Shown here piece by piece: positions 18,429 through 61,735 of a stretch of DNA of 64,000 nt (positions within the stretch are counted from its first letter, which is position 1; each line of letters begins with the position of its first letter). The notes below the pieces were generated by a model. The model saw only the letters and a list, made by a program, of their open reading frames with translations. It was not told where the DNA came from and did no database searches. Source of the stretch: an uncultured delta proteobacterium (GTDB lineage: Bacteria > Desulfobacterota > Desulfobacteria > Desulfobacterales > B30-G6). The position numbers were made by a program, and so were the translations under genes. The stretch lies in the NCBI GenBank assembly GCA_963823335.1, contig CAWGLD010000001.1:512001-576000 (forward strand), given 5' to 3'.

Positions 18429-18461
18429 GTGTCTCTCCCTTTGTTTTTGCAGCTCTAAGCC

Positions 18462-18476: not shown

Positions 18477-18523
18477 AAATAAAAAAACAACCGCTGTTCT
18501 GACAGCCCCATGGGCAAACCTGT

Positions 18524-27979: not shown

Positions 27980-28123
27980 TTGAACCGAAACAGCGAGCGC
28001 ATTCCCCGTAGGTTCTGCCGTCCGGCAGTGCTTCGCATGCTGCGGGGGTTAGCGAGCGAATCTAAATTAGACAGAATTCCTTACGGTCGAAGATTCCTCG
28101 TAGCTTGCTGCGAGGTTCTTCAA
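27980..28123. mobile_element. 144-bp non-coding dispersed element (MITE-like) with TTGAA/TTCAA ends and internal hairpins
   Basis: Second copy at 18770-18907; 18-nt terminal remnant at 2986-3003; hairpin CCTCGTAGCTTGCTGCGAGG. Confidence 0.72.
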
Positions 28124-28241
28124 TATAGAAAAACCAAGCCTTTCTGTCAAAATAAAATCGTTACAATGCTGCTCCTGGGACCGAAAGGTTATTTTGACAA
28201 ATGCTATATGCGGAAGAACGGATCGGAGAATCCCTATCTTA

Positions 28242-29224: not shown

Positions 29225-29316
29225 TATCTTGAGTAAGCAGGACAGCTATAAGCATTGAGCCATAAGCTGTTAGCATGCTTATAGCTTAATGCTTACTGCT
29301 TAAAAAAGGCCAAACA

Positions 29317-30459: not shown

Positions 30460-30735
30460 TAGTTAGGGTTCAAGGGGCCGAGGGGGATACAAGGGTTGGA
30501 GGGTGGCTGACAGCAGCATCCCAGCGTCCCAGCATTCAAGGAGTGAAGGTGTGAAGGGTTTGAGGGAAAGAGATGTCATTTGCTTCGCGTCATTTGTGGT
30601 CATTTACTTCGTGTCATTAATCGCAGCTGTGGGCATTCAGCTATAGACAACAATAAATGACAGCCGAAGGCGAAATGACGCGCGTAGCGCAAATGTCGTC
30701 CGGCAGGACAAATGACGCACGAAGTGTAAATCACC
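30460..30735 (+). repeat. Composite element: G-rich 8-mers, partial core, inverted linker units, 4-unit mini-hairpin array
   Basis: AAATGAC AGCC-GAA-GGCG / AAATGAC GCGC-GTA-GCGC / AAATGTC GTCC-GGCA-GGAC / AAATGAC GCAC-GAA-GTGT at 30655-30727. Confidence 0.85.
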
Positions 30736-30757
30736 TAAGAACTGAATTAATTGGAAT

Positions 30758-30882
30758 TAGCCGGCGTATTTTGAAGTGAGGTTGCCGCATCCGCAAGGCG
30801 TCGGACCATGAAGCTGTAGTTTGCTACCGCGAATGGTCCGCAACACAGCGGATGCGGTGAGATCGCTTCAAAATACCGGTTA
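30758..30882. mobile_element. About 125-bp palindromic MITE/REP-like element
   Basis: Nested arms: TAGCCGGCGTATTTTGAAGTGA/TCGCTTCAAAATACCGGTTA, CCGCATCCGC/GCGGATGCGG, CGGACCAT/ATGGTCCG. Confidence 0.65.
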
Positions 30883-31359
30883 AGTGAAGATTTTACGGGC
30901 CAGGTCAATATCTTCCGGACAGAAGACGAAAAGGCATTTTGCGTCCGGAGAAGAAACGGATCCATAGACATAATTGATATTGACCCCTTCCTGGCCGAAT
31001 TTTCTGGTGATGCTGGCCAGTTCACCCGGCCGGTTCTCCAGTTCCAGGGCAATCACCGGCATGATATCGTAAACATACTGGTTTTCGGTCAGCAGATCCA
31101 TGGCCTTGTCTGTTTTGTCCACCAGGAGACGCAGCAAGGCATACTCAGCCGAATCCTTGCGCATGGAGTTGTAGCTGGCTGCAGATGCAATACGCTTCAG
31201 AGATTTACCCCTGGCCTTGAAAAGCTCCTGAACATAACTCGATGCATCCTGAATCGTCATGGCATCGATGTTGATATTTTCTTCCCCAAAGGCAGTTGCC
31301 AGTTTGCCAAGTTCACCGGGTTCGTTTTTCATGAATAGCGATATCTCTGTTCGTACCAT
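30880..31359 (-). CDS. Tandem ACT domain protein
   Basis: NEPGEL...ENINI and ENRPGEL...GVNINYVY. Confidence 0.88.
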   Translation of the reverse strand: MVRTEISLFMKNEPGELGKLATAFGEENINIDAMTIQDASSYVQELFKARGKSLKRIASAASYNSMRKDSAEYALLRLLVDKTDKAMDLLTENQYVYDIMPVIALELENRPGELASITRKFGQEGVNINYVYGSVSSPDAKCLFVFCPEDIDLARKIFT

Positions 31360-31425
31360 GGATGACTCCTTGTTTTAAGCGATAAGCGGTAAGCCATCAG
31401 CTGTAAGCAGTTTACAGTTTAATAC

Positions 31426-31671
31426 TTCAACTTTCGATTTGTACCATAAATAGAGCGAAATGGGTGATCCAATGGCGATTTGCGCTGTTTGAGGCGCTTA
31501 GGGATCCTTTCATCAGCGCATGACCATGAAAATCCAATATGAAAATTCGGCCATTTGGCAGCCATGCCTGTTTCACTTTATGGCCGGCGCTGATGTTAGG
31601 AGCCTTTGCGGCGAGTTCGCAAAGCGCCAGGGGATTATTCATTTCGTGTTCGCTGAACCCCGAAAGTTGAA
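31426..31671. mobile_element. 246-bp MITE with 11-bp perfect TIRs and 7-bp flanking direct repeat
   Basis: TTCAACTTTCG (31426-31436) ... CGAAAGTTGAA (31661-31671); TTAATAC at 31419-31425 and 31672-31678. Confidence 0.75.
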
Positions 31672-31691
31672 TTAATACCTAAAACTATGCT

Positions 31692-41823: not shown

Positions 41824-41909
41824 TATTTAATTCCTCTATTTAGTTCCTCGAACTTTCTTCAGTTTTTTAGGGGTTTAGACTGTAGACTCAATGCCGTTAA
41901 CTTAATGAT

Positions 41910-41970: not shown

Positions 41971-42009
41971 ATTGCGTGGAGCCGGGTACCACCTTAAATC
42001 AATGACCTT

Positions 42010-42115
42010 GACTGTAGACTATAAGGTGCGTCCGCCCCTCTCCAACCCTTGTATCACCCTCAAACCCTCTTATCACCCTTGTATCCCCCTCAAACCCTTC
42101 ACTTCTCCAACCCTG
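42010..42115 (-). repeat. G-rich (sense-strand) 8-mer tract plus 7-mers downstream of the selenoprotein gene
   Basis: Plus strand CCAACCCTTGTATCACCCTCAAACCCTCTTATCACCCTTGTATCCCCCTCAAACCC. Confidence 0.75.
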
Positions 42116-42121
42116 GTCTCT

Positions 42122-42138
42122 CCCGGCCGCCCGCCGGG
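42122..42138 (-). promoter_or_regulatory. Candidate SECIS hairpin for the C-terminal UGA (lies in the 3' UTR)
   Basis: CCCGGC-GGGCG-GCCGGG, starting 13 nt after the UGA at 42154-42152. Confidence 0.65.
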
Positions 42139-42142
42139 TGGT

Positions 42143-42370
42143 TTAAATCTTTCACCCTTTCCCGTTGTAACCGATAACCACCTTTCCCTGATCGACGATC
42201 ACCGGGACCTTTCGGCCACCCTTTGAATATACAAGCATGCTATTCATCTGTGCCTTGTCCGACAGTACGTCGTGATACTCAACATATCGACCCGCCTTTT
42301 CAAAAGCTTCCCGAGCTTCGGTGGTATAGGGTCAGGTATTTTTCCCGAAAATAATAACTTTTTCTGACAT
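42143..42370 (-). CDS. Glutaredoxin-like selenoprotein with two Sec residues (UXX-star-type), 75 aa
   Basis: AGGAGG RBS; MSEKVIIFGKNTUPYTTEAREAFEKAGRYVEYHDVLSDKAQMNSMLVYSKGGRKVPVIVDQGKVVIGYNGKGUKI*; TGA at codons 13 and 73; absent from the ORF track. Confidence 0.85.
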
Positions 42371-44700: not shown

Positions 44701-44828
44701 GGGGAAGGGTATGAAGGGACCGAGGGTCCAGGGTTCGAGGGTGATACAAGGGTTGGAGAGTGGCTGAGGGCAGTGAGCGAAAGGCACCTAATCGTCTACA
44801 GTCTAAACCGCTAAAAGGCTAACCAGGG
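44701..44828 (+). repeat. G-rich 8-mer tract, conserved core and 7-mer tail between ptsI and smpB
   Basis: 44744-44828 matches 47998-48082 at 80 of 85 positions (manual alignment). Confidence 0.88.
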
Positions 44829-44840
44829 AGTTGACCGTCA

Positions 44841-45302
44841 ATGAATCAGGGTCATATAAAAAAGATCGCAGAAAACCGAAAAGCGCGTTACGATTTTCAT
44901 ATCGAAGATACCTATGAGGCCGGAATTGTACTGCTCGGGACTGAAGTTAAATCCCTCCGAACAGGCCGGGCCAACCTGAAAGACTCTTACGCCAAGGTTA
45001 CCAATGGGGAGGTGTTCGCACACCAGATTCACATCGGCGCTTATCCCTTCGCCTACTACGACAACCACGACCCTTTGAGGGTTAGAAAACTTCTTTTGAA
45101 AAATCATGAAATCAAACGGCTCTACGCAAAAGTCAACGAGAAGGGATATTCTCTGATACCCTTGAGCCTCTACTTCAAGGACGGCAAGGCCAAGATGACC
45201 CTGGCCCTGGCAAAAGGCAAACGCAAGTACGACAAACGGGAATCCATCAGAAGCCGAGATGAAAAAAGAGATCTGGATCGTCAGAGAAAAGAGTACAAAT
45301 AA
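44841..45302 (+). CDS. smpB: SsrA-binding protein
   Basis: NRKARYDF, EAGIVLLGTEVKSLR, RKLLL, KGKRKYDKRE. Confidence 0.97.
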   Translation: MNQGHIKKIAENRKARYDFHIEDTYEAGIVLLGTEVKSLRTGRANLKDSYAKVTNGEVFAHQIHIGAYPFAYYDNHDPLRVRKLLLKNHEIKRLYAKVNEKGYSLIPLSLYFKDGKAKMTLALAKGKRKYDKRESIRSRDEKRDLDRQRKEYK

Positions 45303-45355
45303 AATCGCTGTGCGACTTTATTTGCGAATGCGTTCAGAGTAGATGGAGTACTCTC

Positions 45356-45785: not shown

Positions 45786-46994
45786 ATGAACAACCCGCCT
45801 GCAGTAGCCGTTGTCGGTACATTTGATTCAAAGGGAGAAGAACATCTGTTCCTCAAGAACCGTATTGAAGAATTGGGGCTCCAGGTGTTGACCGTAAATG
45901 TCGGGACCAGAGAACCCATTCCCTTCGAAGTATCCCATGACCTGTATGCGTCCATGAAAAAGGATGCGACACTGGATGACAGTAACCGGGACAAAGCCAT
46001 TCAGGGAATGATCCATGGAGGCATACAGTTAATAAAACAACTGTATCGCGATGGTAAAATCCAGGCCATGATATCCGCCGGCGGTGGCAGTGGAACGCAC
46101 CTCTGTTCCAGTATCATGCGCGAACTCCCTATCGGGGTTCCAAAGGTGATGGTTTCAACCGTTGCCTCTCGAGACATGAAGCACACTGTCGGCACCAAAG
46201 ACATCACCATGATGCACAGCGTGGTGGACCTGCTGGGGGTGAACAGCATTTCCGGAATTATTCTGGACAAGGCCGCAGCAGCCGTTTGCGGCATGACCAT
46301 GAGTCAATGGCGGCCTGCTAAAGACAAAAGACGTATTGCACTCTCATTTTTCGGCTTCATCACAAAATCGGCCGAAGCAGTTAAAAAGGCCCTGGAGGGC
46401 ATGGGCTATGAAGTGATTCCCTTTCATGCCAATGGCACCGGCGGTATGGCCATGGAGGAGCTGGCCGCAGAAGGATATTTTGACGGCATTCTCGATCTGG
46501 CAACCCATGAACTGGCCGATGCGTTGATGGGTGGCTACTGCAGCGGCATCGGGCCCGGGCGTTTCGAGCCGTCTGCGGGGAAAAATATTCCCCGGCTGAT
46601 CACACCGGGAGGTCTTGACTGTGCCGTGCTCGAATTTACTCGCCAGCATGTTCCCGAAGAATACAGGAACCGCAAGGTATTTTATTATGACTTCAGATCC
46701 GCCATTCGCCTCACCCTCGAAGAGAGCCGGGTACTGGCTGAACAGCTGTCTGACAGACTGAACAAGGACGTGAAAAATGTTCATGTCCTGGTTCCCACCC
46801 AAGGATGGTCCGAAGCAGACCAGCAGGACGGACCGCTGTATGACCCTGAAACAAATGCATATCTGGTTAAAATTTTCAAAGAAAAACTGGACAAACGCAT
46901 TCAGCTTCAGGAAATCGACATGCACATCAATGATCCTGGTTTTGCTCAAATTGCGGCCAATGTAATGGATCAGATGGTCAAAGAGCGCAGCTAA
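45786..46994 (+). CDS. Tm-1-like ATP-binding domain protein (UPF0261), paralog 1
   Basis: GTFDSKGEE, GGGSGT, LPIGVPKVMVSTVAS, FHANGTGGMAMEEL, HINDPGFA. Confidence 0.88.
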   Translation: MNNPPAVAVVGTFDSKGEEHLFLKNRIEELGLQVLTVNVGTREPIPFEVSHDLYASMKKDATLDDSNRDKAIQGMIHGGIQLIKQLYRDGKIQAMISAGGGSGTHLCSSIMRELPIGVPKVMVSTVASRDMKHTVGTKDITMMHSVVDLLGVNSISGIILDKAAAAVCGMTMSQWRPAKDKRRIALSFFGFITKSAEAVKKALEGMGYEVIPFHANGTGGMAMEELAAEGYFDGILDLATHELADALMGGYCSGIGPGRFEPSAGKNIPRLITPGGLDCAVLEFTRQHVPEEYRNRKVFYYDFRSAIRLTLEESRVLAEQLSDRLNKDVKNVHVLVPTQGWSEADQQDGPLYDPETNAYLVKIFKEKLDKRIQLQEIDMHINDPGFAQIAANVMDQMVKERS

Positions 46995-47034: not shown

Positions 47035-47913
47035 ATGATTATCAAACCCGATTGCATCCCCTGTATCTTGAACATGTCTTTGCACTATCTTCGCAAACTG
47101 TCCCTTGGCGAGGAACAGGTCAACAAGATCTGTTCAGATATTCTGACATTGCGACCCCTCAGGGGAGAGATATGGGATATCACCAGCCCGGAAATCATCG
47201 AGCCGATCATGAAGAAAATCATGTCCGCTGTCGGCAGTCACGATCCCTTTGCAGTTGAAAGGGTAAAGCAGAACCAGAAGATGCTGACGCTGTATCCACA
47301 GCTGCAAAAAATGGTAAAGACAGCTGAGCATCCATTTAAAGCAGCAGCACACCTCGCCGGTCTTGGAAATGCCATCGATGTCATGCTGGTGGGGGGTGCC
47401 ACAGATATTCAGAAAATCATCAAAGAACAACTCGCCGATCCTCTGCCGGAAAATGTATTAGAGATACTTGAAAAACGGATCATGAGCAGTCGCCACATTC
47501 TCTACTTTGGCGACAATGCCGGAGAAATCGTTCTGGACAGGCTGTTCATCGAAACGATCAAAGAGCACTATGATACAGACATTACCTTTGTGGTCAGAAG
47601 TATGCCGACCTTGAACGATGCAACCCTGAAAGATGCAGAACAGACAGGTATGGCCAATCTGGTGCGTGTCATGGAGAACGGTATCGATGGTCCTGTCCCC
47701 GGAACCCTGCTGAATCGATGCTCAGGTGAGTTGCAGCGTCTTTTTCAGGAGGCGGATCTGATCATATCCAAAGGCGGTGGGAATTTTGACACCCTGGATG
47801 AGCTGCCGGAGAAGCGCAAAAGCAAGATATCCTATCTGCTGCTGTCAAAATGCCGCCCCTACCAAGAGCATTTTGGTGTGGGATTGCAGCGGGCGATACT
47901 ATTTAACGCTTAG
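47035..47913 (+). CDS. DUF89/ARMT1-like damage-control metal-dependent phosphatase
   Basis: N-terminal DCIPC, GNAID, DNAGEIVLD, LNDAT, ISKGGGNFDTL, KC. Confidence 0.88.
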   Translation: MIIKPDCIPCILNMSLHYLRKLSLGEEQVNKICSDILTLRPLRGEIWDITSPEIIEPIMKKIMSAVGSHDPFAVERVKQNQKMLTLYPQLQKMVKTAEHPFKAAAHLAGLGNAIDVMLVGGATDIQKIIKEQLADPLPENVLEILEKRIMSSRHILYFGDNAGEIVLDRLFIETIKEHYDTDITFVVRSMPTLNDATLKDAEQTGMANLVRVMENGIDGPVPGTLLNRCSGELQRLFQEADLIISKGGGNFDTLDELPEKRKSKISYLLLSKCRPYQEHFGVGLQRAILFNA

Positions 47914-47924
47914 AGAACTTTAAA

Positions 47925-48330
47925 AAAGGGTTTGAGGGTGATACAAGGGTGGTACAAGGGTTCGAGGGGGATAAAGGGGTTCGAGGGTCAGAGGGGGATA
48001 CAAGGGTTGGAGGGTGGCTGACAGCAGTTAGCGAAAGGCACCTAATAGTCTACAGTCTAAACCGCTAAAAGGCTAACCAGGGGTGGAGGGTGGTACAGGG
48101 GTTGGAGGGAAATAACTGTCATTTGCTTCGCGTAAATGAAAATGTTTCAGCTGTTAGGTTTTAAGTGTTAGGTAAGTCACGGGCTAAGAGCAACAATAAA
48201 TTACGCGCGCAGCGCAAATGACAGCCGAAGGCGAAATGTCGCGCGCAGCGCAAATGTCGTCCGCTAGGACAAATGACGCACGAAGTGCAAATGACATCCG
48301 AAGGATAAATGACGCCTGAAAGGCGAATGC
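47925..48330 (+). repeat. Largest composite element: G-rich 8-mers, core, 7-mers and 7-unit mini-hairpin array
   Basis: Array at 48198-48324 of AAAT(G/T)(A/T)C + 4-bp stem + GNA loop, 18-nt period (one 19-nt unit). Confidence 0.9.
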
Positions 48331-48342
48331 ACAGGGGGGCCC

Positions 48343-49554
48343 ATGCAGAAACCAAGCGTACTTCTTGTGGCAACAATGGATACCAAGTTCAGGGAAGCCG
48401 GCTTCATAGAATCCTGTCTCAAAGAATCCGGCTGTGCGGTCACGGTTATGGATGCCGGGATTCGTGGCGATAGCCCCGTACCTGTCACAATTACAAGACA
48501 CGAAGTCGCCCGGGCCGGCGGAAAAACATTATCGGAAATTCAATCCATAGGCCACGAAGGCGAAGCTCTCAACATGATGCTCATGGGCGCCTGCAGGATT
48601 GCGGACGAAATGATCGCCAAGGGTGCCGTCATTGGTGTCATAAGTCTGGGCGGCTCCATGGGAACCACACTCGGTACGGGTGTCATGCGCCGATTTCCCA
48701 TCGGGGTCCCAAAGGTGATGATCTCCACCATGGCCTCCAGGGATACCCGCACGTTTGTGGGAACAAAAGACATTCTTATGCTGCACGCCGTCTGTGATCT
48801 CTCGGGCCTCAACCGGTTTTCGAGAAAAATACTCCACAACGGCGCCATGGCCCTCTACGGCATGGTGTCCCGGAGCCGGAAAGACATTTCATCAGACAAA
48901 TCCATGATCTTTATTTCCACTCTGGGAACCACCGAGAAATGTGTTCAGGAGATACGCGCCTCCCTCGAAAAACAGGGTAAGGAAGTCGTGGTCTTTCACA
49001 CGGTGGGTTCCGGCGGCAGAGCCATGGAAGAACTCATCGCCTCAGAACCGGTTGAAGCCCTGGTGGACCTCTCCCTGCATGAAATGGCGGATCATCGTTT
49101 CGGAGGGGATTACGATGCAGGACCTGACAGGGGTTCCGTGGCATTGAAAAAGGGGATTCCGGTCGTCCTGGTACCCGGAAATATCGATTTTCTTGTGTCA
49201 GGACCGCTGGAGCAGTCCCTGAAAGATTTTCCCGATCGGCCGTACCATGTTCACAATACAGCCATTACGGTTGTACGAACGACCCGTGAAGAGATTGAAA
49301 GCATTGCCCGGCATGTAGGGGATTATTGTAATGCCGCCCCTGGACCGTACACCCTGGTAATTCCCATGAAGGGATTTTCAGCCTTTGACGCCATAGAGGG
49401 GCCGCTTCACGACCCCCAGGCACCGACCTGCTTTGTCAAAGCCCTGGAATCCCAGCTGTCCGACACATCACGGATGCACACCCTGCCATACCACATCAAT
49501 GATTCCGGCTTTTCTGCAGCTGTGATTGAAAAGCTCCAAGAACTGTTGCCCTGA
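48343..49554 (+). CDS. Tm-1-like ATP-binding domain protein (UPF0261), paralog 2
   Basis: ATMDTKFRE, GGSMGT, FPIGVPKVMISTMAS, FHTVGSGGRAMEEL, HINDSGFS. Confidence 0.88.
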   Translation: MQKPSVLLVATMDTKFREAGFIESCLKESGCAVTVMDAGIRGDSPVPVTITRHEVARAGGKTLSEIQSIGHEGEALNMMLMGACRIADEMIAKGAVIGVISLGGSMGTTLGTGVMRRFPIGVPKVMISTMASRDTRTFVGTKDILMLHAVCDLSGLNRFSRKILHNGAMALYGMVSRSRKDISSDKSMIFISTLGTTEKCVQEIRASLEKQGKEVVVFHTVGSGGRAMEELIASEPVEALVDLSLHEMADHRFGGDYDAGPDRGSVALKKGIPVVLVPGNIDFLVSGPLEQSLKDFPDRPYHVHNTAITVVRTTREEIESIARHVGDYCNAAPGPYTLVIPMKGFSAFDAIEGPLHDPQAPTCFVKALESQLSDTSRMHTLPYHINDSGFSAAVIEKLQELLP

Positions 49555-51825: not shown

Positions 51826-51942
51826 GTTTTAGGTGTTAGGTATTAAGTTTTAGGTTCAGCCACAAGACAGGTGCCCCTTTGCTGTCCGCTAATGGCCGTC
51901 ACCCTTATACCACCCTCCGACCCTCCAACCCCCTCATCACCC
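51826..51942 (-). repeat. G-rich 8-mer tract, degenerate core and 7-mers between lysR and the Nudix gene
   Basis: Plus strand CACCCTTATACCACCCTCCGACCCTCCAACCCC and GTTTTAGGTGTTAGGTATTAAGTTTTAGG. Confidence 0.7.
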
Positions 51943-52890
51943 TCACCTCTGCTGGGCCAGTATCTTCAACATCAAGGCCCCGATATCCTGTGGTCGCATA
52001 TCTTCGGAGCGTAATTTTTTCAAGACTTTTTCAAAAGCCCTGGCAGGCATGGACAAGGGTTGCTTTTTCAGGTAGGCAAAACTGACGTCAAGATAAATCT
52101 GTTGTCCTTTGAGGGGAATCGTGGCCAATTTTCCTTCTTCGATTTCCGCAGCCACACAGGCCTTCACAAGAATGGAAACCCCCTCCCCTTTCTGAACCAG
52201 CTGTTTGATAAATTCGTTGTTACTGGTTTCCATGAGAACATTGGGTGTACAATCATGCTGTTTAAAAAGCATGTTCACGCGCTTTCGGGTTCCTGAACCT
52301 GTTTCCTTCATGATCAGCGGCTCTTTAGCCAGGTCCTGGGGGGAGATGTCTCCTTCGGCTGTCAGCGGGTGATTTACCGGAACAACAAGAATCAGCTCTT
52401 CCTGACTGAAAGGAACAAATGTAACCGCTGGATTCTCTGATGCCTTTGCAATGACAGCCACTTCATTCTTGAATTCCAGGAGGGTGTTGGTCATGTCCAG
52501 TGAGCTGCCCTCATCCAGATGAATTTTGATGCCGGGGTAGTCTTTATGAAAGCTGGAGAGCAGCGACGGCATAAAATAGCGCGCATAGGTCTTGGTGGTT
52601 CCCAGCCTCAGAACACCCCGTTTCAGCTCCTTCATGTCATCGATGACGTTCTCGATTTCTTTTTCATATTGAAAGATTTTCTGGGTGTATTCATACAGTG
52701 TCTTGCCTTCTTCCGTCAGATGTATCTGGCGTCCCTTTTTCTTGAACAGCTTCAGGTTGCATCCTTCTTCCAGTGCCTTGACCTGGGCCGTTACAGCCGG
52801 TTGTGTTACGAAGAGCATGCCTGCCGCAACCGTAAAACTGGCATGCTTCGCTGCATAATGAAAGGTCCTGAGCTGGTTGAAGTTCAACAT
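51943..52890 (-). CDS. LysR family transcriptional regulator, divergent from the ppsA-like operon
   Basis: MLNFNQLRTF...SFT.AA..L.VTQPAVTAQVKALE HTH; KETGSGTR. Confidence 0.93.
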   Translation of the reverse strand: MLNFNQLRTFHYAAKHASFTVAAGMLFVTQPAVTAQVKALEEGCNLKLFKKKGRQIHLTEEGKTLYEYTQKIFQYEKEIENVIDDMKELKRGVLRLGTTKTYARYFMPSLLSSFHKDYPGIKIHLDEGSSLDMTNTLLEFKNEVAVIAKASENPAVTFVPFSQEELILVVPVNHPLTAEGDISPQDLAKEPLIMKETGSGTRKRVNMLFKQHDCTPNVLMETSNNEFIKQLVQKGEGVSILVKACVAAEIEEGKLATIPLKGQQIYLDVSFAYLKKQPLSMPARAFEKVLKKLRSEDMRPQDIGALMLKILAQQR

Positions 52891-53207: not shown

Positions 53208-55064
53208 ATGCCGGACGAAAAAGGAAGATTTCCAGATCCCCACGAGATTCAGGTTCCCCCGGAACTTGAGGGATGGGAGGAGATGTATCCATCACATCAC
53301 CTCTTTTCCAAGGACAGAGCAGACTGGGAAAAAGCGCAATTCTGGTATCAGGACAAGATCCATGCACCCGAGCCGGTGCCACCCCTGGATCTCATTTTTC
53401 AGGAGGCGTGGCAGATCTCCCTTTCCCAGTACACTACCCGGGTATTTTGTATTCCACCTGCCCAGGGAATCGCCCAGAGAATGGTGGGCTGTTACCTGTA
53501 CATCTGTGCCATTGCGCCCCCACCCGACGAAATTATCGGCCAGAAAGCAGCCCTGTTCGAAAAACGCGTTTTCTATGTATTTGAGCACTATGATGAACTG
53601 TGGGAAAAATGGCTCACAAAGTTCAAGGCGCTGGGCCAGGAAATGGAGGACGTGAAGGTCCCGGCGGAGTTGCCGAAATTTGTTCCGGATGATGAAGTGC
53701 TGCCCGCGCCTAAGGGCTACTACGATTCATACACACTCCTCGAATCTTTCGACAAACTTGTCAACCAGATGTTCAAGGGCTGGCAATATCATTTTGAAAT
53801 GCTCAATCTGACCTATCTGGCCTACCTCATGTTTGCCGATGTAGCCAGAAAACTTTTCCCGGGAATCAGTGAAAGCGCCATCGGCAAGATGGTGGCCGGC
53901 GCATATGTTTCCATGTTCAAACCGGAGGAGGAATTGTGCCGACTCGCCAGACTGGCACATTCGACCCAGGCCGTGGCGGATATTTTAAGGAGCGACAACA
54001 CGGCGGCGGAAAAAATCGCCACGCTTGAAAAAATATCTGAAGGTAAAAACTGGCTGGCGGAATATGAAAAATCCAAAGACCCCTGGTTCTCTGTGTCCTG
54101 CGGCAGCGGCTGGTTTCATCATGAAGGCAGCTGGACAACCAACCTCGATATTCCTTTCAGCTATCTCAAGAGTTATGTGGACCGTTTAGCCAATGGAGAA
54201 ACCATCGAACGTGCCCTGGAGGAGATCGGTAAAGAACGGGACAAAATCGTCGAAGAATACAAAAATCTCATCCAGACCGACGAAGACAGACAATCCTTCG
54301 ACGGTGCCTACAACACCATCCGAACCATCTATCGATATGCCGAGGATCATCTCTTCTGGGTGGAACATTGGTTCCATACCATTTGGTACAGAAAAATCCG
54401 GAAGATCGGGAAACTGCTTGTCGACAACGGGATGATCGATCAAGTGGATGACATTTTCATGTTCAACCGTTACGAAATTCCGCAACTTCTGACCGAAGTT
54501 TCAACGGCCTGGGCCCTGGGCGTAGACATACCCATGAGAAGTTCCCACTACAAGGCCAAGGTTGTCAAGCGTCGAAGCATTCTGGAGGCCGCCGGAAAAT
54601 GGAATCCGACACCGGCACTGGGTGTTCCGCCTGCAGAAGTGGCCGAGCCGTTTACGATCATGCTGTGGGGCATCACCACGGACAGGGTGCAGGAATGGCT
54701 CAAGGGCGTCGATGCGGCCCAGGAAGGCGATGTTTCCGAAATCAAAGGCTTTGCTTCTTCCGCCGGTGTAGCTCAAGGACCCGCAAGGGTACTGAAGTTA
54801 CTCAAGGACATCCTGGATCTGCAGCCCGGAGAAGTACTGGTTTGTCCCTCAACCAACCCGTCCTGGGCACCTGTTTTTACCAACATCAAAGCAGCCGTTA
54901 CCGACATTGGCGGTCTCACAAGTCATGCGGCCATCGTCTGCAGAGAATACGGTATTCCGTCCGTCACGGGGACGGGTGTGGCTACGTCTGTTATCAAGAC
55001 CGGCGATATCGTCAAGGTAGACGGCGATACGGGTTTGGTAGAGGTAATCGAACGGGCAGGGTAA
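53208..55064 (+). CDS. Phenylphosphate synthase alpha subunit-like protein (PEP-utilising phospho-His domain)
   Basis: RFPDPHEI...EGWEEMYP...[10 protein letters not shown]...[10 protein letters not shown]...[10 protein letters not shown]-terminal [18 protein letters not shown]. Recalled similarity to Thauera PpsA over the full length. Confidence 0.85.
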
Positions 55065-55101
55065 TCCGACACCTACGTTGCCCGAACAACCATTTAAGCA
55101 T

Positions 55102-55134
55102 GTTTGGAGCGGTGTAACCAACGCCGCTCCAAAC
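55102..55134 (+). other. Intercistronic 14-bp stem-loop
   Basis: GTTTGGAGCGGTGT-AACCA-ACGCCGCTCCAAAC. Confidence 0.6.
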
Positions 55135-55156
55135 TTCCTAAAACCCGTAAACGGGG

Positions 55157-56233
55157 GTGGAAATGGAGTATGTTCTTACTTTCCTGGAGGTAGACAAAAA
55201 TTCACTGTCGCTGGTTGGCGGCAAAAACGCCAGTCTGGGAGAATTGATAAAGGCGGACATTCGCGTGCCTCCCGGTTTTGCCGTAACCACGGAGAGTTAT
55301 CATAAATTTATCACCGAAACCGGGATCAGGGACAAGATTTTCCAAATACTATCGGACATGAAGCCGGGAGACATTGCCGCCCTGAATGCCGCCAGCGAAA
55401 GTATCCAGACGCTGATACAGGGTTCAGCCCTGTCGGAAGACATCCGATCGGCCATCGAAAAAGCATATGCGGAGCTCTGCGCCGACTGCCGGGTAATCGA
55501 CATGCCGGTGGCGGTTCGTTCAAGCGCTACGGCCGAAGACCTGCCCACGGCCAGCTTCGCCGGTCAACAGGACACCTATCTCTGGATTCAGGGTCACAAA
55601 GATGTCGCGGAAAAGGTTCAGCGCTGCTGGGCCAGCCTGTTTACACCCCGGGCCATCGATTATCGTGTAAAAAATAAGTTTGCACATGAGAAAGTTCTGA
55701 TCAGCGTAGGGGTTCAGAAAATGGTGAACTCCAGAGCTGCCGGGGTTATGTTTACATTGAACCCGACCGACGGCGACCTGTCCAAGGTCGTTATCGAAGG
55801 CAGCTGGGGGCTGGGGGAGACTGTCGTTTCCGGCTCCGTCAATCCGGACAAGTTCGTGGTAGACAAGGTGGTCATGGAAACTTCAGACAAGACCATTTCC
55901 ACCAAACACATCGCCTGCGTATACGACCCGCAGGCAGGTAAGGTCGTGGATGCGGATGTGGATGAAGACATGCAGTGCAAATGCTGTCTGGAGGATATGG
56001 AAGTCAAGGCCCTGGTGAGCATGGGCAAGTTGATCGAACGGCACTACAAGCGCCCCATGGACATCGAATGGGCCATCGATAAAGACCTCGATTTCCCCGA
56101 GAATATCTTTATCGTGCAGGCGCGGCCGGAGACCGTCTGGAGCCAGCGTAAGACACGCTCGCTAATCGGCGCTAAAAGCGGCTATCAACTTTTGATGGAA
56201 CAGGCCATGAAACGGATCAAGATACCCAGTTAA
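55157..56233 (+). CDS. Phenylphosphate synthase beta subunit-like protein (ATP-grasp N-terminal domain of PEP synthase)
   Basis: VGGKNASLGEL, AVRSSATAEDLPTASFAGQQDTYL, WGLGETVVSG, DIEWA, QARPETVWS; no His or pyruvate domain. Confidence 0.88.
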   Translation: MEMEYVLTFLEVDKNSLSLVGGKNASLGELIKADIRVPPGFAVTTESYHKFITETGIRDKIFQILSDMKPGDIAALNAASESIQTLIQGSALSEDIRSAIEKAYAELCADCRVIDMPVAVRSSATAEDLPTASFAGQQDTYLWIQGHKDVAEKVQRCWASLFTPRAIDYRVKNKFAHEKVLISVGVQKMVNSRAAGVMFTLNPTDGDLSKVVIEGSWGLGETVVSGSVNPDKFVVDKVVMETSDKTISTKHIACVYDPQAGKVVDADVDEDMQCKCCLEDMEVKALVSMGKLIERHYKRPMDIEWAIDKDLDFPENIFIVQARPETVWSQRKTRSLIGAKSGYQLLMEQAMKRIKIPS

Positions 56234-56238
56234 AAAAT

Positions 56239-56385
56239 AGGGTTCGAGGGTCCGAGGGTCCGAGTGGCGAAGGGTGGCTGACGGCAGTGAGCGAAAGGCA
56301 CCTGCAGCCTATCGTCTAAACGCCTAAAAGAAGTGCTTGGTTCTCAGCTGAAATTAACACTAAAACCTAAAACCTAAAACGAAAA
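56239..56385 (+). repeat. G-rich 8-mers, 33-nt core and 7-mers
   Basis: AGGGTGGCTGACGGCAGTGAGCGAAAGGCACCT (56271-56303), identical to 60403-60435. Confidence 0.88.
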
Positions 56386-56491
56386 TACTGCACTAACGTC
56401 TATACCGCAAAAAAAATCGTTTGGTAAAAATCATATGGGTTTTGTTTGCATGTTTGTTCAATTCTAACCAATAAAGGAGGACTGTTGCTCT

Positions 56492-57898
56492 ATGAAGAAC
56501 ATGAGAGATTTTATCACAGAAGGTGAGAAAAAGGGCCTGTGTAAACGAATTTCAGCTGAAGTCGATTGGAATCTGGAGTTGTCGCATATCGCCAAACTCA
56601 ATGAAGAGCAAAAGGGTCCGGCGCTGCTGTTTGAAAATGTGAAGGACTATGACACACCGGTGATTACCAGTGTCTGTACCACCCCTGAAAGACTGGCATT
56701 TATCCTTGGTCAACCATTGGATTCCACGCTTGTAGATCTCTACGCGCACTGGGCCAAGCTGGGGGACAACCTGTTGGAGCCCAAGTATGTGGAAAAAGCG
56801 GATGCGCCATGCAAAGAGAATATCATCACCGGGGACGACATTGACCTTTTCAAATTCCCCGTGCCGCAGTGGTATCCTCTGGACGGGGGCCGTTATATCG
56901 GGACCGCTCATTTCTTCATCAGCAAGGATCCCGAAACCGGCTGGGTAAACCTGGGAACCTACAGGGCTCAGCTATTGGGAAAAGACAAGATTGGCACCCA
57001 GTTTATCAAGGGCAAACATGCCGACATCATGCTGAAGAAATATCAAGCCATGGGGAAACCCATGCCGGTGGCTTCAGTAATCGGGTGTGATCCTCTGCTT
57101 TTTATCCTCGGTGCAGCACGCGTTTCAGCTTTTACTTCAGAATACGATGTGGCAGGCGCCCTGCGCGGTGAGCCTGTAGAAGTCGTTAAAGGAGAAATCG
57201 TCGATCTGCCCATTCCGGCACATGCCGAGATCGTGCTCGAAGGAGAAGTGGATGCCGACAAATTTATGGAAGAAGGACCGTTCGGTGAATATACCGGGTA
57301 TTATTCCGGCGTTGGTACGGATCCACGCAATTTCATGGATGTCCAATGTGTCACCCATCGTAACAATCCGATTCTCTGGGGAACCACCGTCGGCCGGGCC
57401 GTTACAGACACGCACATGACCATGGCACTGTCATATGGGGCCACCCTTTGGCAACAATTGTTGGCCATGAAGATTCCAGGCTTGAAAGCGGTTTACTGCC
57501 CGCCGGAAGGCTCCGGACGGTTTTTGGCCATCATCTCCATGAAGCAGATGTATCCCGGGCATGCAGACCAGGTGCTCACGGCTGCCATTTCAACGGAAAT
57601 GGGTGCCTATGGTCTGAAAACCGTCATCGTCGTGGATGAGGATATCGACCCCTGGGATATTCCCCGGGTCCTGTATGCCTTGAGTTTCAGATTCCAGCCC
57701 AACCGCAGTCAGGTCATCAAGAGAGGGCGGTCCACACCACTGGATCCGTCTCTGCCCATCAATGCGCGGGAAATTACCGGTAGACTTTTGTTGGATGCCA
57801 CCATACCCTATGACTGGAAACACAAACCGATTCCCATTGAACTGGACGCGGAAATGGTGAAAAGAGTCAAGTCGCGATGGTCTGAGTTGGGGTTATAA
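56492..57898 (+). CDS. UbiD-family (de)carboxylase, phenylphosphate carboxylase beta subunit-like
   Basis: EVDWNLELSHI.KL.E..KGPALLFE, DGGRYIGT, NLGTYR, EGPFGEYTGYY, KRGRSTPLDP (PpcB-like by recall). Confidence 0.88.
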   Translation: MKNMRDFITEGEKKGLCKRISAEVDWNLELSHIAKLNEEQKGPALLFENVKDYDTPVITSVCTTPERLAFILGQPLDSTLVDLYAHWAKLGDNLLEPKYVEKADAPCKENIITGDDIDLFKFPVPQWYPLDGGRYIGTAHFFISKDPETGWVNLGTYRAQLLGKDKIGTQFIKGKHADIMLKKYQAMGKPMPVASVIGCDPLLFILGAARVSAFTSEYDVAGALRGEPVEVVKGEIVDLPIPAHAEIVLEGEVDADKFMEEGPFGEYTGYYSGVGTDPRNFMDVQCVTHRNNPILWGTTVGRAVTDTHMTMALSYGATLWQQLLAMKIPGLKAVYCPPEGSGRFLAIISMKQMYPGHADQVLTAAISTEMGAYGLKTVIVVDEDIDPWDIPRVLYALSFRFQPNRSQVIKRGRSTPLDPSLPINAREITGRLLLDATIPYDWKHKPIPIELDAEMVKRVKSRWSELGL

Positions 57899-58527: not shown

Positions 58528-58607
58528 ATCACGAAAGCACGAAAGTACGAAAACACGAAAATTTTCATGGTCTTTTTCGTGTTTTTCAGATTTCGTGTTT
58601 TCGTGAT
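58528..58607. repeat. Inverted arrays of the 8-mer CACGAAA(A/G)
   Basis: CACGAAAG CACGAAAG TACGAAAA CACGAAAA ... TTTTCGTG TTTTTCAG ATTTCGTG TTTTCGTG. Confidence 0.8.
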
Positions 58608-58705: not shown

Positions 58706-60361
58706 TTGAAACCGATTCGTTACCAGAAAGATATGATCGATGAATTTGTGACCGATGGTTACTGGACCGAAGAGCTTTTCTATGACTTCTGGGATAGAAA
58801 TGCCCGGGAAATCGGTAACCGGGAAGCGCTGGTAGACTCGAAATATCGCCTGACATGGTCTGAAGCCAAAAAACTGGTGGACGCCATGGCCATTTCCTGG
58901 GTGGAAATGGGAATTCCCAAACATTCCCGGGTCATCATTCAATCGCCCAACAGTGTCTACGGGTTTCTCGCCCGAATCGCCTGTGAGAGGGCCGGACTCA
59001 TTTCTCTTACGGTCTATCCATACCTTCGTCAGAGGGAATTGGAGTACATGCTGGAGAAAACAGAGGCCAAGGCAGTCGTTATTCTGAACATCTACAACAA
59101 ATTCAATTATCTAAAAATGTACACGGAGCTCCAGAAACAGTTTCCCCATCTAAAATATTTTTTTCTTTTCGACGATGACGTTCCGGACGATGCGCCTGCG
59201 GGTACCTATTCGCTGCCCCGGATGACCCAGCTCCGGGCAGAAAAACCAGTGGACGCATCCGTGCTGGCAGAACGCAGGTTGGACCCGTTCTGGAACATCT
59301 CCCTGCTCACGACCACATCCGGCACCACCGGTATCCCCAAGCTGGTGGAGTGGCCCACCGCGCCCCGCGTCTGCACATCCAAAGGCAGATGCGCCATCTG
59401 GAACCTCAACCGTGACGACACCACCATGGCCATCGCCCCTCATGCCGGCGGAGCGGCTGGAACACTGACGTATTTCGCCGCCCCCATTGCCGGTGCCAAA
59501 ACCGTGATGTTGGAGGAGTTTTCCGGCGAAGGCGCGCTGGCGCTCATCGAAAAAGAGAAAGCTACGGCCATCGGTGTGGTTCCCACCCACCTTATACGGA
59601 TGCTGGAGGCCGACGTCTCCAAATACGATCTGAGTTCTCTGCGGTTTATCCGCTCGGCCGGCGGGTATTTATCACCCCAGGTGGCCGAAGAAGCTGAAAA
59701 CGCATTTAAGGCAAGCATTACCAGCGACCTTGGGACCCAGGACAAGGGATCGGTGTCCGGGTGCAGCGTAGAGGATTCAAAGGATCTTCGCCGCAGAACC
59801 GTCGGCCGCATGCTTCCGGGCAACAAGGTGAGATTGCTGGACAAGGACACCGGCAAAGAAGTGCCCGAGGGCGAACCCGGAGTTCTCTGGCTCAGGGGCC
59901 CCCACGCCCCGGCAGGATACTTCCGGGACGAGGAATTGACCGCCACGGTGTTCGACAAGGACGGATGGACCACCACGGAGGATATCGTCAAATTCGATCA
60001 GGGCTGTCTGTGGATTCTGGGCCGGGCCAAGGACATGATCATCCGGGGAGGACAGAACATCTATCCTGCAGAGATCGAGGGCCTGCTCAATGATCATCCC
60101 GGGGTATCGTCTGTAGCGGTTGTGGGGTATCCGGACCGGGAGATGGGTGAACGGTGCTGTGCCTACGTCATCCCCAAGCCTGGTGTGGATTTTTCCTTTG
60201 ACGAAATGGTTTCTTTTCTCAAGGGGAAAAATATTGCCATGTTCAAACTTCCGGAACGGCTCGAAATTGTGTCTGAGTTTCCCCTGGTGGGAGATTCGGG
60301 CAAGGTCAACAAGGAAACCTTGAAGGAACAGATCAAGGCATTGGTTGAGAAGGGGAGCTAA
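58706..60361 (+). CDS. Aryl/cyclic carboxylate-CoA ligase (AMP-binding)
   Basis: TTSGTTGIPK, GRAKDMIIRGGQNIYPAEIE, MGERCCAYV, FKLPERL; TTG start after AGGAGG. Confidence 0.85.
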   Translation: MKPIRYQKDMIDEFVTDGYWTEELFYDFWDRNAREIGNREALVDSKYRLTWSEAKKLVDAMAISWVEMGIPKHSRVIIQSPNSVYGFLARIACERAGLISLTVYPYLRQRELEYMLEKTEAKAVVILNIYNKFNYLKMYTELQKQFPHLKYFFLFDDDVPDDAPAGTYSLPRMTQLRAEKPVDASVLAERRLDPFWNISLLTTTSGTTGIPKLVEWPTAPRVCTSKGRCAIWNLNRDDTTMAIAPHAGGAAGTLTYFAAPIAGAKTVMLEEFSGEGALALIEKEKATAIGVVPTHLIRMLEADVSKYDLSSLRFIRSAGGYLSPQVAEEAENAFKASITSDLGTQDKGSVSGCSVEDSKDLRRRTVGRMLPGNKVRLLDKDTGKEVPEGEPGVLWLRGPHAPAGYFRDEELTATVFDKDGWTTTEDIVKFDQGCLWILGRAKDMIIRGGQNIYPAEIEGLLNDHPGVSSVAVVGYPDREMGERCCAYVIPKPGVDFSFDEMVSFLKGKNIAMFKLPERLEIVSEFPLVGDSGKVNKETLKEQIKALVEKGS

Positions 60362-60460
60362 AACAGGGTCCAGGGGTGATACAAGGGTGGTAAGAGGGTT
60401 CGAGGGTGGCTGACGGCAGTGAGCGAAAGGCACCTAAAAGCCTACAGTCTAAAGCCCTAA
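60362..60460 (+). repeat. G-rich 8-mers, 33-nt core and 7-mers
   Basis: Core at 60403-60435 followed by AAAAGCCTACAGTCTAAAGCCCTAA. Confidence 0.88.
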
Positions 60461-60523
60461 TTTTCTGAACTAGGTTCATCGGCTTTTCGCTAGTGTCCGT
60501 CCAAAAATAGAGATTTTCGCGTT

Positions 60524-61735
60524 ATGCCAAAGCAGATCCTGATCATATCCACCCTGGACACCAAAGGGGTGGAAACACGTTACTTGAAGCAGAAAATCGA
60601 GGCGCTGGGTCTTTCCGCCATCCTCATGGATCTGTCCATGCGCGCTGACGTTAAACTGCCGGCTGAAATAACCAATGCCCAGGTGGCTGAAGCAGGCGGC
60701 AGCAGCATCGAAGAAATCGGGCAATCCCGTGAACGAAGCAAGATCACGAAAATCATGACGTCCGGGGCTTCCAAGCTGGCAAGGCAGTATTATGGCGAGG
60801 GCAGAATCGACGGTGTAATTGCAATGGGCGGATCCACCGGCACCCTGATGGCATCCGATGTGATGCGGTCCCTCCCTTTTGGTGTTCCCAAGACAGTTAT
60901 ATCTTCTACGGCAGCACTTCCCGGTCTTTCCACCAGGTATATCGGAACAGGGGATATTACGCTGTTTCATTCGGTAATCGAAATTTCCGGTCTTTCCAAT
61001 TTGTTAAAAAACGTGATGGACAGGGCAGCACACGCCATCACCGCCATGGTTCATGAGACAGTCACACCCCTGGTTACGGGCGAGGGAAAAGCCATCGCCC
61101 TGACCATGCTGGGTCCCTGTGAAAAATGTGCCAGCTTTGTCCGTATTGCCCTTGAAAAAGAAGGCTATCAGGTCATCGGCTTCTCCGCAGCCGGTGTGGG
61201 TGATCGGGCCATGGAACAGATGATCGCCGAAGGGTTTTTTCAGGGTGTCATCGACCTGGCGCCGGGTGGGGTCGGGGAGCATCTTTTCGGTTTTATGAGA
61301 GATGCAGGCCCGAATCGACTGGAAAATGCAGGCAGGATGGGAATTCCAATGATTGTTTCCACCTGCAGCGTCAATCACATGACACCCTCAAAGTCCAGAT
61401 ACCAAGCCGAATACCACCAGCGCCGCAAATATGACCTGGATAAATTTCGCACCTGGATACGATTGTCGCCGGAAGAGCTGCAGAGCGTTGCGCAAGCCTT
61501 TGCCGCGAAATTGAACAAAGCCGGCGGCCCGGTAAAATTCCTGATACCGCAGAATGGTTGGTCTTCGGTGGACCAGCCCGGCAATCCGACCCACGATCCA
61601 CAGGAGGACCGCATCTTCGTTGAGGTGCTGCAACAAAACCTGCGCCCGGACATCGACATCCTGGAAATACAGGCCAATATGGAAGACCCGGTCTTTGCCC
61701 AGGCTGTTGTTGAAACGGCATTGCATCTATTTTAA
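60524..61735 (+). CDS. Tm-1-like ATP-binding domain protein (UPF0261), paralog 3
   Basis: STLDTKGVE, GGSTGT, LPFGVPKTVISST, FSAAGVGDRAMEQM, NMEDPVFA. Confidence 0.85.
   Translation: MPKQILIISTLDTKGVETRYLKQKIEALGLSAILMDLSMRADVKLPAEITNAQVAEAGGSSIEEIGQSRERSKITKIMTSGASKLARQYYGEGRIDGVIAMGGSTGTLMASDVMRSLPFGVPKTVISSTAALPGLSTRYIGTGDITLFHSVIEISGLSNLLKNVMDRAAHAITAMVHETVTPLVTGEGKAIALTMLGPCEKCASFVRIALEKEGYQVIGFSAAGVGDRAMEQMIAEGFFQGVIDLAPGGVGEHLFGFMRDAGPNRLENAGRMGIPMIVSTCSVNHMTPSKSRYQAEYHQRRKYDLDKFRTWIRLSPEELQSVAQAFAAKLNKAGGPVKFLIPQNGWSSVDQPGNPTHDPQEDRIFVEVLQQNLRPDIDILEIQANMEDPVFAQAVVETALHLF

Follow-up and report, generated by a model that had tools for sequence, protein, structure and literature searches.

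Three intergenic spacers in a 64,000-nucleotide (nt) stretch of DNA from an uncultured delta proteobacterium (contig CAWGLD010000001.1, positions 512,001 to 576,000; the whole stretch is called the window here) hold arrays in which a constant 7-nt linker, mostly AAATGAC, alternates with mini-palindromes built around a C-GNA-G core. The arrays all belong to one dispersed, non-coding repeat family found in Desulfobacterales-type genomes, and the same unit grammar is found in Bacteroidales. In lifestyle the family is like the repetitive extragenic palindromic (REP) sequences and bacterial interspersed mosaic elements (BIMEs); structurally it is a new repeat family, defined by tandem C-GNA-G mini-hairpins on a constant heptamer linker. 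Its hairpins are under pairing constraint. Because the grammar of the units is the rule for extraordinarily stable DNA mini-hairpins, we suggest, with a probability of roughly 0.45, that the form in which the arrays are constrained and do their work is single-stranded DNA.

Three arrays in the window

In each of the three arrays (A, B and C) the units run head-to-tail, each consisting of the linker and a mini-palindrome of 11-12 nt. All three arrays are intergenic and all are sense-oriented relative to the upstream gene.

Array A, 48198-48324, + strand: seven units with C-GNA-G or C-GNNA-G mini-hairpins, spacings 18, 18, 18, 19, 18, 18 nt (window reading and relaxed-linker scan)
Array B, 30655-30734, + strand: four hairpin units (30655-30727) and a degenerate fifth linker AAATCAC (30728-34), spacings 18, 18, 19, 18 nt
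Array C, 16971 down to 16845, - strand: seven units, the last imperfect (ATTC-GAA-GGCG), spacings 18, 18, 18, 18, 19, 18 nt
Entry motif CAACAATAAAT, 48191-48201, + strand: 5' edge of array A
Entry motif CAACAATAAAT, 30648-30658, + strand: array B
Entry motif CAACAATAAAT, 16968-16978, - strand: array C

An earlier note, made from the sequence alone, had listed the seven units of array A exactly as they read. Its four units of array B (30655-30727) stand, to which the degenerate fifth linker is added; for array C its minus strand and its relationship to the other arrays stand, and its six units become seven. Also borne out are its claims of a common start motif, a partly conserved unit order (85-90% identity over 76-106 nt among the three arrays) and a sense orientation to the upstream gene (3/3).

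The units stand out clearly from the composition of the window. The pattern AATNWC-N3-CGNAG has 13 matches in the window compared to 1.01 expected, and CGNAG-N4-AATNWC has 12 compared to 1.12; 0/100 shuffles reach either count. Every match of both patterns falls within arrays A, B and C, and there are no solitary units in the window. Tandem Repeats Finder reports period 18/36 at 48198-48327 (period 36, 3.2 copies) and period 18 at 16892-16971. The entry motif has three exact occurrences in the window, one per array start. Taken alone it is weak evidence, as 1.27 matches are expected at up to one mismatch and 9/100 shuffles give at least three; it belongs to a conserved lead-in, ..AGC.ACAAT.AAT, in the alignment of 13 arrays.

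The three arrays are also alike as wholes. Positions 30655-30741 and 48216-48302 are 90% identical over 87 nt, 16847-16952 and 48199-48304 are 85% identical over 106 nt, and 16859-16934 and 30656-30731 are 87% identical over 76 nt. One stem has changed on both sides, from GTCC..GGAC in A and B to GTTC..GAAC in C, a compensatory pair that the earlier note had pointed out. A coding role for the arrays was rejected: unit lengths of 10, 15, 18 and 19 nt vary between copies, and the sense linker has TGA/TAA in two frames.

Relatives, stem constraint and known repeat families

Species-representative genomes were scanned for three AAATGWC linkers 11-12 nt apart, with the spacers unconstrained, and at least 115 loci were found. 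Loci were classified by their count of spacers shaped stem-C-GN(N)A-G-stem, at least two being required per locus. Among the matches listed, 11 loci hold 3-21 such hairpin spacers and 104 hold none, being ordinary tandem repeats of identical units. Eight of these 11 grammar-bearing loci lie in four Desulfobacterales/deltaproteobacterial metagenome-assembled genomes, or MAGs (L004, L044 and L114 in one; L050 and L075 in another; L023 in a third; L047 and L105 in a fourth), and three lie in three Bacteroidales MAGs (L038, L051 and L061). The window's own genome is absent among the matches listed.

The deltaproteobacterial loci have the window's lead-in, its other modules and also its arm 1, a shorter inverted array just upstream of the array proper; the Bacteroidales loci have only the unit grammar. 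Such an inverted array accompanies 8/13 Desulfobacterales arrays, and in L114 it comprises eight units. Array A is 91% identical to L044 over 69 nt and 90.5% identical to L105 over 95 nt, with unrelated flanking genes in both cases. The genes flanking the 11 outside loci are ordinary and mutually unrelated, and no consistent gene association emerges.

One neighbour deserves separate mention. In L038, from a Rikenellaceae MAG, an open reading frame (ORF) of 121 amino acids at 2076-2441 (-) belongs to the 23S rRNA intervening-sequence protein family PF05635, a four-helix bundle (E 8e-27). Its 3' end lies inside the first unit of a five-unit array (1989-2081), and there is no inverted array upstream of the ORF. 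The earlier note had proposed a search for copies enclosing an ORF, of this family among others: such a gene does adjoin an array, in one of the 11 outside loci, but arrays do not flank it on both sides.

The window and the 11 outside loci together supply 23 arrays, 157 units and 134 internal spacers. Arrays range from 3 to 23 units, always head-to-tail, and the longest has all 23 units in one spacer of L061. The linker is WAATNWC, mostly AAATGAC; its AAT and C are invariant because the search pattern sets them, and are therefore not evidence. Spacer lengths are 11 nt (73), 12 nt (17), 7 nt (11), 8 nt (9), 10 nt (1) and 3-4 nt (23). The 3-4-nt spacers have no hairpin, CAT occurring seven times; the mini-palindromes of the other 111, of 7-12 nt, comprise 56 distinct hairpin spacers. 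Their loops follow the DNA mini-hairpin (Hirao) motif as set out in PMC13037366: the closing pair is C-G in 106/111 and the triloop is GNA in 93/111 (GAA 55, GCA 22, GTA 14, GGA 2), while the eight 4-nt G..A loops are all GNYA, with a pyrimidine at position 3, and none is GNRA. The earlier note's appeal to a stable C-GNA-G hairpin rule is thus well founded. Stems are of 4 bp in 76 spacers, 3 bp in 14, 2 bp in 20 and 1 bp in one.

Covariation was assessed in the 73 units of exactly 18 nt, of which 58 are distinct. The four stem pairs are paired in 96.6% of cases, compared to 67.8% in shuffles and 25-48% with slid partners, and 59 double-sided stem changes are observed compared to 16.3 in shuffles; 0/500 shuffles reach either value. 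The earlier note had claimed that pairing is kept while stems vary and had named stem covariation as the test of its proposal; the covariation is present. Three pair types are used freely at the second stem pair and likewise at the third, 56/58 distinct units close with C-G, and the first stem position is a purine in 73/73 units (G 49, A 24). In L061, seven AGCGNAGC units vary solely at the middle base of the loop.

Longer periods are superimposed on the unit in several arrays:

Window array A: period 36 nt, 3.2 copies, 78% matches
L038: period 37 nt, 2.5 copies, 94% matches
L061: period 51 nt, 7.2 copies, 84% matches
L105: period 54 nt, 2.7 copies, 89% matches

These higher-order periods indicate that arrays grow through duplication of blocks of two to three units, in keeping with the unit-expanding element described in the earlier note. 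A unit order, AGCC-GAA-GGCG > GCGC-GYA-GCGC > GTCC/GTTC-GNNA-GGAC/GAAC > GCAC-GAA-GTGC, recurs at unrelated loci and in different genomes. As a pattern in the sequences, whole arrays thus appear to have been copied to unrelated intergenic sites. Insertion unit by unit at the linker, in the style of IS200/IS605, is disfavoured, as growth is in two- to three-unit blocks and unit order is kept between copies.

One pair of loci allows a closer comparison. Arrays L044 and L075b both precede acyl-CoA dehydrogenase genes, whose proteins are 95% identical. Their three shared units are identical at 56/64 positions and the adjacent leader at 38/76; the arrays differ by one 10-nt CAT unit, and one stem reads GTCC..GGAC in one and ATCC..GGAT in the other. 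Since the arrays of the family are all alike, this shows conservation of the family sequence and not proven orthology. The upstream carboxyltransferases of L075 and L023 were considered as orthologues and rejected, as they are only 29% identical.

No named family of this design was known to the author of the earlier note, and our searches agree. Rfam gave no matches on the whole window at gathering score and none on 47900-48360, the array A region, at E up to 10; across the 11 outside loci, at E up to 1, it gave one tRNA and three sub-threshold chance matches, none on an array. Blastn of 48100-48340 against plasmid and phage collections found no match, and literature searches found no description of tandem mini-hairpin arrays.

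REPs, BIMEs and REPINs are among the few kinds of non-coding DNA that persist in compact genomes, and no more than part of their biology is understood. The likeness to them is considerable on the accounts in PMC3733652 and PMC3337134: these too are short, structured repeats present in many copies between genes, mostly downstream of ORFs where the neighbouring genes are co-oriented or convergent; they form subfamilies with compensating stem changes and mosaics with other motifs, often with inverted neighbours; and roles at the DNA and the RNA level are both debated. The part of PMC3733652 that defines REPs describes palindromes of 20-40 bp with stems of 6-13 bp (GTAG) or 8-9 bp (CGTC) and an unpaired GTAG or CGTC tag, mostly as singletons or inverted dimers. 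Placement agrees with this account (3/3 window arrays and 13/14 long arrays with callable neighbours). Size and arrangement do not: most stems here are of 2-4 bp within palindromes of 7-12 nt, and head-to-tail order, negligible in REPs as described there, is the rule here for up to 23 units. The arrays have the 7-nt AAATGAC linker, which contains no GTAG; where GTAG does occur, it is a chance product of C-GTA-G loops. On the complementary strand the junction of linker and stem is YGTC, which resembles the CGTC/TGTC tag of the same source; its first base is paired and it continues GTCATTT. We treat it only as a lead. REPINs go with a RAYT gene (a Y1 HUH transposase) flanked by the repeats; no such gene was seen in the 64-kb window or within up to 4 kb around the outside loci.

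Natural DNA mini-hairpins are described in PMC13037366 from G4-type phage origins, ssiA of RSF1010 and the virion-RNA-polymerase promoters of phage N4, where they are used as single-stranded DNA. Those examples are single and lie at phage and plasmid origins and promoters, whereas the arrays are tandem, chromosomal, built on a constant linker and spread over many intergenic sites. CRISPR arrays share the regular alternation of constant and variable elements. They differ in a constant part of 24-48 nt compared to 7 nt, and in spacers that are unique, where the arrays have an 11-nt palindrome from a small shared repertoire (56 distinct of 111). The arrays also form many small loci per genome, and there is no cas gene among the 49 window ORFs.

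The texts of PMC2700814 and PMC2996986 describe two kinds of intergenic repeat in Geobacter: tandem repeats of hepta- and octanucleotides, which often come in opposite-strand pairs, and direct repeats of 6-42 nt, present in 12% of the intergenic regions. There, as here, short-period words fill intergenic DNA, with several families per spacer and at times opposite-strand pairing; the descriptions in those texts mention no variable, covarying hairpin between the constant words, and some overlap with the arrays is possible. The Geobacter repeats, whose role is unknown (PMC2700814, PMC2996986), also lend some support to a neutral origin, in which the arrays would be slippage-prone, microsatellite-like DNA, with palindromes kept perfect by intra-strand template switching and copies spread by recombination among intergenic repeats. 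Growth as ordinary tandem duplication of multi-unit blocks, spacers full of other short-period word repeats and the lack of a consistent gene association all fit such a by-product. We nevertheless consider it improbable. Template switching leaves unexplained why the G and A of the loop are invariant when its middle base is free, why the closing pair is C-G and why the stem begins with a purine; the same grammar is present in two phyla; and the shared units of L044 and L075b are more alike than the leader next to them.

Single-stranded DNA, transcript or duplex

The case for single-stranded DNA begins with the loops. When all 64 triloops were tested in GCNNNGC, only GNA gave a mini-hairpin, and d(GCGAAGC), with two G-C pairs and a sheared G-A pair, has a melting temperature of 76.5 C compared to 39 C for r(GCGAAAGC) (both reported in PMC13037366). 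Stems of 2 bp occur in 20/111 spacers, among them GCGAAGC, GCGTAGC and ACGAAGT, and some array units are literally heptamers of the d(GCGNAGC) type published there (GCGAAGC, GCGTAGC, GCGGAGC). The 397 stem cells include six G.T and six A.C, so there is no wobble asymmetry and a DNA-level grammar is favoured. The inverted arrays of arm 1 follow the same grammar on the opposite strand, and the L051 array is antisense to both of its neighbouring genes. Energy folding is not decisive: predicted z-scores are -0.75 for the sense RNA and -2.6 for DNA, in an energy model that has no special term for GNA loops, and the minimum-energy RNA fold pairs the repeats mutually and does not keep the mini-hairpins.

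If the arrays work in this form, the AAATGAC strand could become unwound in one of three ways: as the non-template strand while the upstream gene is transcribed, as the lagging-strand template, or under negative supercoiling. Every spacer would then snap into a mini-hairpin that resists coating and nucleases, and the heptamer linkers would remain as evenly spaced single-stranded sites for a candidate protein. Arrays lengthen and shorten through slippage or unequal exchange of two- to three-unit blocks. The sense bias of long arrays could reflect use of the non-template strand, or else selection against the reverse orientation, which reads as a hairpin followed by the U-rich tail UCAUUU; as this resembles a terminator, it could be selected against inside operons. 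The evidence for DNA and that for a transcript can be reconciled, as the sense strand is the non-template strand and often the lagging-strand template too. The GC skew of the window follows gene orientation and is therefore no independent marker of replication direction.

Several observations weigh against single-stranded DNA as the working form, or narrow the case for it. The wobble test is based on 12 cells only. Among long arrays with callable neighbours, 13/14 are in sense orientation, as expected of an RNA element; arrays sit between a stop codon and either the ribosome-binding site of the next gene or a canonical terminator (the latter in L004, L047 and L114); and all other word repeats in the array spacers are sense-oriented as well. 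The loop preference of the arrays, A > C > T > G, departs from the order of stability given in PMC13037366, A > G > C > T. Covariation in short DNA palindromes can come from template-switch correction rather than from selection. The outside loci were classed by a hairpin criterion, and hairpin frequencies within them are therefore partly circular; only two hairpins per locus were required, and the window's own 19 units were chosen independently of the criterion. Taxonomic spread and copy number are lower bounds (at least). Finally, no target-site duplications were seen by eye at array edges, no empty sites or partner protein were found among the loci examined, and no transposase family was matched among the 49 window ORFs and 26 outside-locus ORFs (64 kb, and up to 4 kb per outside locus). 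The HUH/RAYT link suggested in the earlier note is not supported by the ORFs scanned. Of its mobile element, the recurrence at unrelated loci and in other genomes holds; of the marks of strict mobility (an empty site, target duplication or transposase) none was found. As to its proposal of recognition as single-stranded DNA or RNA, the grammar of the units speaks for DNA and their placement for a transcript.

The main rival follows directly from this placement. As an RNA element, an array would act in the transcript of the upstream gene, within the 3' untranslated region (UTR) or an intercistronic spacer, where it could slow 3'-to-5' exonucleases, insulate neighbouring cistrons, or titrate or recruit an RNA-binding protein at its AAAUGAC sites, as do REPs in mRNA or multi-site sponge RNAs. 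Besides the sense orientation of 13/14 long arrays, arrays A and C end 18 and 16 nt ahead of the next ATG, and an A-tract/hairpin/T-tract terminator follows the array in L004, L047 and L114, which places those arrays in a 3' UTR. The neighbouring G-rich modules are all sense-oriented, and REPs, on the account in PMC3733652, also lie mainly downstream of ORFs in unidirectional or convergent settings and are argued to be transcribed. The structure of the units speaks against it. Triloop stems of 4 bp, and especially of 2 bp, are weak in RNA, as the melting temperatures above illustrate (39 C compared to 76.5 C; PMC13037366); none of the eight 4-nt G..A loops is GNRA; G.U is no commoner than A.C (6 compared to 6); the grammar persists in antisense, in inverted arrays and in L051; the sense RNA is predicted to fold no better than shuffles and to lose its mini-hairpins in the minimum-energy fold; and searching the array A region against Rfam with E as high as 10 gives no match. 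On balance, action in the transcript is possible and somewhat unlikely.

Terminators might be sought in the same places. Under that explanation the arrays would be hairpin-cluster terminators, either of the sense transcript or, as hairpins followed by UCAUUU, of antisense or convergent transcription. A simple scan gives four antisense-strand sites at array A compared to 0.5 expected and one at array C, all of them weak; array B lies between convergent genes; and clusters of hairpins past stop codons have been proposed computationally as termination units (as presented in PMC8355165). However, the sense-strand hairpins precede an A-rich linker and not U, the scan finds no sense-strand site at A, B or C and none on either strand at B, and stems are just 4-5 bp. 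Arrays A and C stand directly before co-oriented genes, and in the three loci with a canonical terminator after the array, the array would be redundant as one. We therefore regard termination as very unlikely.

The units can also be read as duplex sites, in which a regulator or nucleoid-associated protein would bind the iterated AATGAC heptamer and the palindromes between would be incidental. Hairpin-less versions do exist at a period of 10-11 nt, about one helical turn (AAATGAC-CAT-AAATGAC, seven times; (G/T)AATGAC-TATT in L051), and the paired tandem heptamer and octamer sites on opposite strands in Geobacter are guessed, in PMC2700814, to bind IHF/HU. Yet the compensatory stem changes and the loop rule are left unexplained, at the usual period of 18-19 nt one site and the next lie on different helical faces, and the array strand has no promoter-like site. 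This explanation we consider hardly likely at all.

Single-stranded DNA seems to us the likeliest of these readings. A more specific version, which is rather doubtful, would make the arrays the cis element of an undescribed single-stranded-DNA system of Desulfobacterales and Bacteroidales, in which a dedicated protein reads the AAATGAC heptamers that the unwound strand would expose between nuclease-resistant mini-hairpins. Candidate readers would be an HUH-type nuclease, a primase-like enzyme or a nucleic-acid-binding four-helix-bundle protein of the PF05635 type. Were there such a protein, the family would represent either a new non-autonomous mobile element, with ends and a body of 18-nt modules, or a set of strand-specific signals in the chromosome that serve priming or relieve supercoiling at gene ends.

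In either version, the family is built on the smallest very stable fold known for nucleic acids, in up to 23 repeats at fixed spacing. If it acts as single-stranded DNA, this would be the first chromosomal, arrayed use of mini-hairpins, hitherto found at phage and plasmid origins and phage N4 promoters, and it would lead to the proteins that read such DNA.

Genomic setting and neighbouring repeat modules

Each copy in the window is the final part of a mosaic that begins at the stop codon of the upstream gene. Its order is G-rich word arrays of 8, 11 and 19 nt, then (in A only) a conserved module of about 70 nt, arm 1, heptamer words, the lead-in ending ACAAT-AAAT and the array. Arm 1 follows the linker-plus-hairpin grammar in the opposite direction over one to four units, and its spacers are short (GCGAAGC and ACGAAGT, for example). 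The parts and neighbouring genes are as follows.

Copy A, ARMT1-like gene, 47035-47913: upstream neighbour
Copy A, upstream mosaic, 47921-48109, + strand: G-rich 8/11/19-nt word arrays (47921-48015, 48076-48109) around the ~70-nt module (48014-48085)
Copy A, arm 1, 48118-48137: one unit; the + strand reads GTCATTT-GCTTCGC, that is, linker and GCGAAGC mini-hairpin on the - strand; second linker degenerate
Copy A, UPF0261 gene, 48343-49554: downstream neighbour, its ATG 18 nt past the array end
Copy B, AstE/AspA-family gene, 29317-30459: upstream neighbour
Copy B, G-rich word arrays, 30462-30571, + strand: beginning 3 nt past the stop codon
Copy B, arm 1, 30574-30619, - strand: four linkers with spacers ACGAAGT, CAC and GCGAAGC (Tandem Repeats Finder period 14 at 30575-30618)
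Copy B, ACT-domain gene, 30880-31359, - strand: next gene, convergent
Copy C, outer-membrane efflux gene, 17073-18527, - strand: upstream neighbour
Copy C, G-rich word array, 17029-17078, - strand: overlapping the efflux-gene stop codon
Copy C, arm 1, 17007-17027, + strand: two linkers around one short hairpin; the - strand reads GTCATTC-GCTTCGT-GTCATTT
Copy C, HlyD-type adaptor gene, 15767-16828, - strand: downstream neighbour, its ATG 16 nt past the array end, accompanied by an AcrB-type pump gene

A long foldback of arm 1 on arm 2 was considered and is unsupported in the window, where A and C have no inverted repeat of at least 12 nt and B has two 12-nt pairs at the level of the linker. Outside the window, the arms of L114 match over 30 nt at 73-80%, and L051 has linker-level inverted pairs.

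The non-hairpin modules of the mosaic are also present in about ten further spacers of the window that have no hairpin arrays, and in every case the sense strand of the adjacent gene is the G-rich one. The G-rich word arrays have periods of 8, 11, 19 and 27 (GGGTTCGAGGG and GATACAAGGG types) and begin at or near stop codons. With GGG runs 5-8 nt apart they look quadruplex-prone, and the same modules are found in the deltaproteobacterial MAG loci L044 and L075. The module of about 60-70 nt that follows them in several spacers is conserved and non-coding; its copies are 71-90% identical over 105 nt, and it has no Rfam match at gathering score. Other short-period intergenic words are heptamers of the TAAGC and GTTAGGT types, CTAAAAC in three copies and CACGAAAG in four copies facing its own inverted copy. 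They resemble the hepta- and octanucleotide repeats reported from Geobacter genomes. The STRR heptamers of cyanobacteria are further intergenic short-period word repeats.

G-rich word arrays: 7444-7527 (-), 17029-17078 (-), 30462-30571, 42030-42124 (-), 44719-44770, 47921-48015, 48076-48109, 51901-51944 (-), 56236-56277, 60359-60410
Module of ~60-70 nt: 44760-44830, 48014-48085, 56275-56330, 60405-60475; partial copies at 12335-12399 (-) and 41846-41888 (-)
Short-period word repeats: 7299-7360, 10667-10708, 29275-29303, 31376-31420; 48150-48175, 51829-51855; 56360-56380; 58530-58605

Arrays and word repeats fill many intergenic spacers of these anaerobes, and spurious ORFs result (48184-48501, -; 41972-42226). 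Three ORFs of 84-119 amino acids run across repeat arrays, at 41972-42226 (+), 48184-48501 (-) and 16577-16936 (+), and have no family match; they are probably artefacts of repeat composition. The two that pass antisense through arrays A (48184-48501) and C (16577-16936) were rejected as genes, with no Pfam match. Such repeats are likely trouble spots in the assembly and annotation of MAGs.

Some further elements lie close to the arrays. A non-coding element of about 270 nt at 31419-31686 (-) is 84% identical to L050:2151-2418 in a deltaproteobacterial MAG. Just downstream of it is a hairpin array in L050 and TAAGC heptamers in the window. It has no Rfam match at E up to 5 and may be an undescribed structured RNA. 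At 30766-30876, between the convergent genes, there is a long imperfect hairpin whose 44-nt arms are 75% complementary and enclose a loop of 23 nt; it directly follows the ACT-domain gene and lies 30 nt past array B. The terminator-like motif just 3' of the arrays in L004, L047 and L114 (A-tract, ATCGC-NNN-GCGAT-type hairpin, T-tract) is found in the window at 45298-45324 and 10150-10192, for example directly after smpB. A GC-rich repeat of about 150 nt occupies two divergent promoter regions (18830-18960 and 27990-28130), with a partial third copy at 2774-2800; only sub-threshold chance Rfam matches fall near it.

Among the genes, three paralogues of UPF0261 lie within 16 kb (45786-46994, 48343-49554 and 60524-61735), and repeat mosaics directly precede those at 48343 and 60524. 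The gene content of the window looks like that of a Desulfobacterales-type anaerobe, with sigma-54 activators, MttB, UbiD, a phenylphosphate-synthase-like pair and many acyl-CoA enzymes. At 53208-57898 there is a cluster typical of anaerobic phenol activation, which encodes a PEP-utilising mobile-domain protein, a PPDK_N-domain protein and a UbiD-family carboxylase, with an acyl-CoA ligase and a flavin prenyltransferase-like gene nearby.

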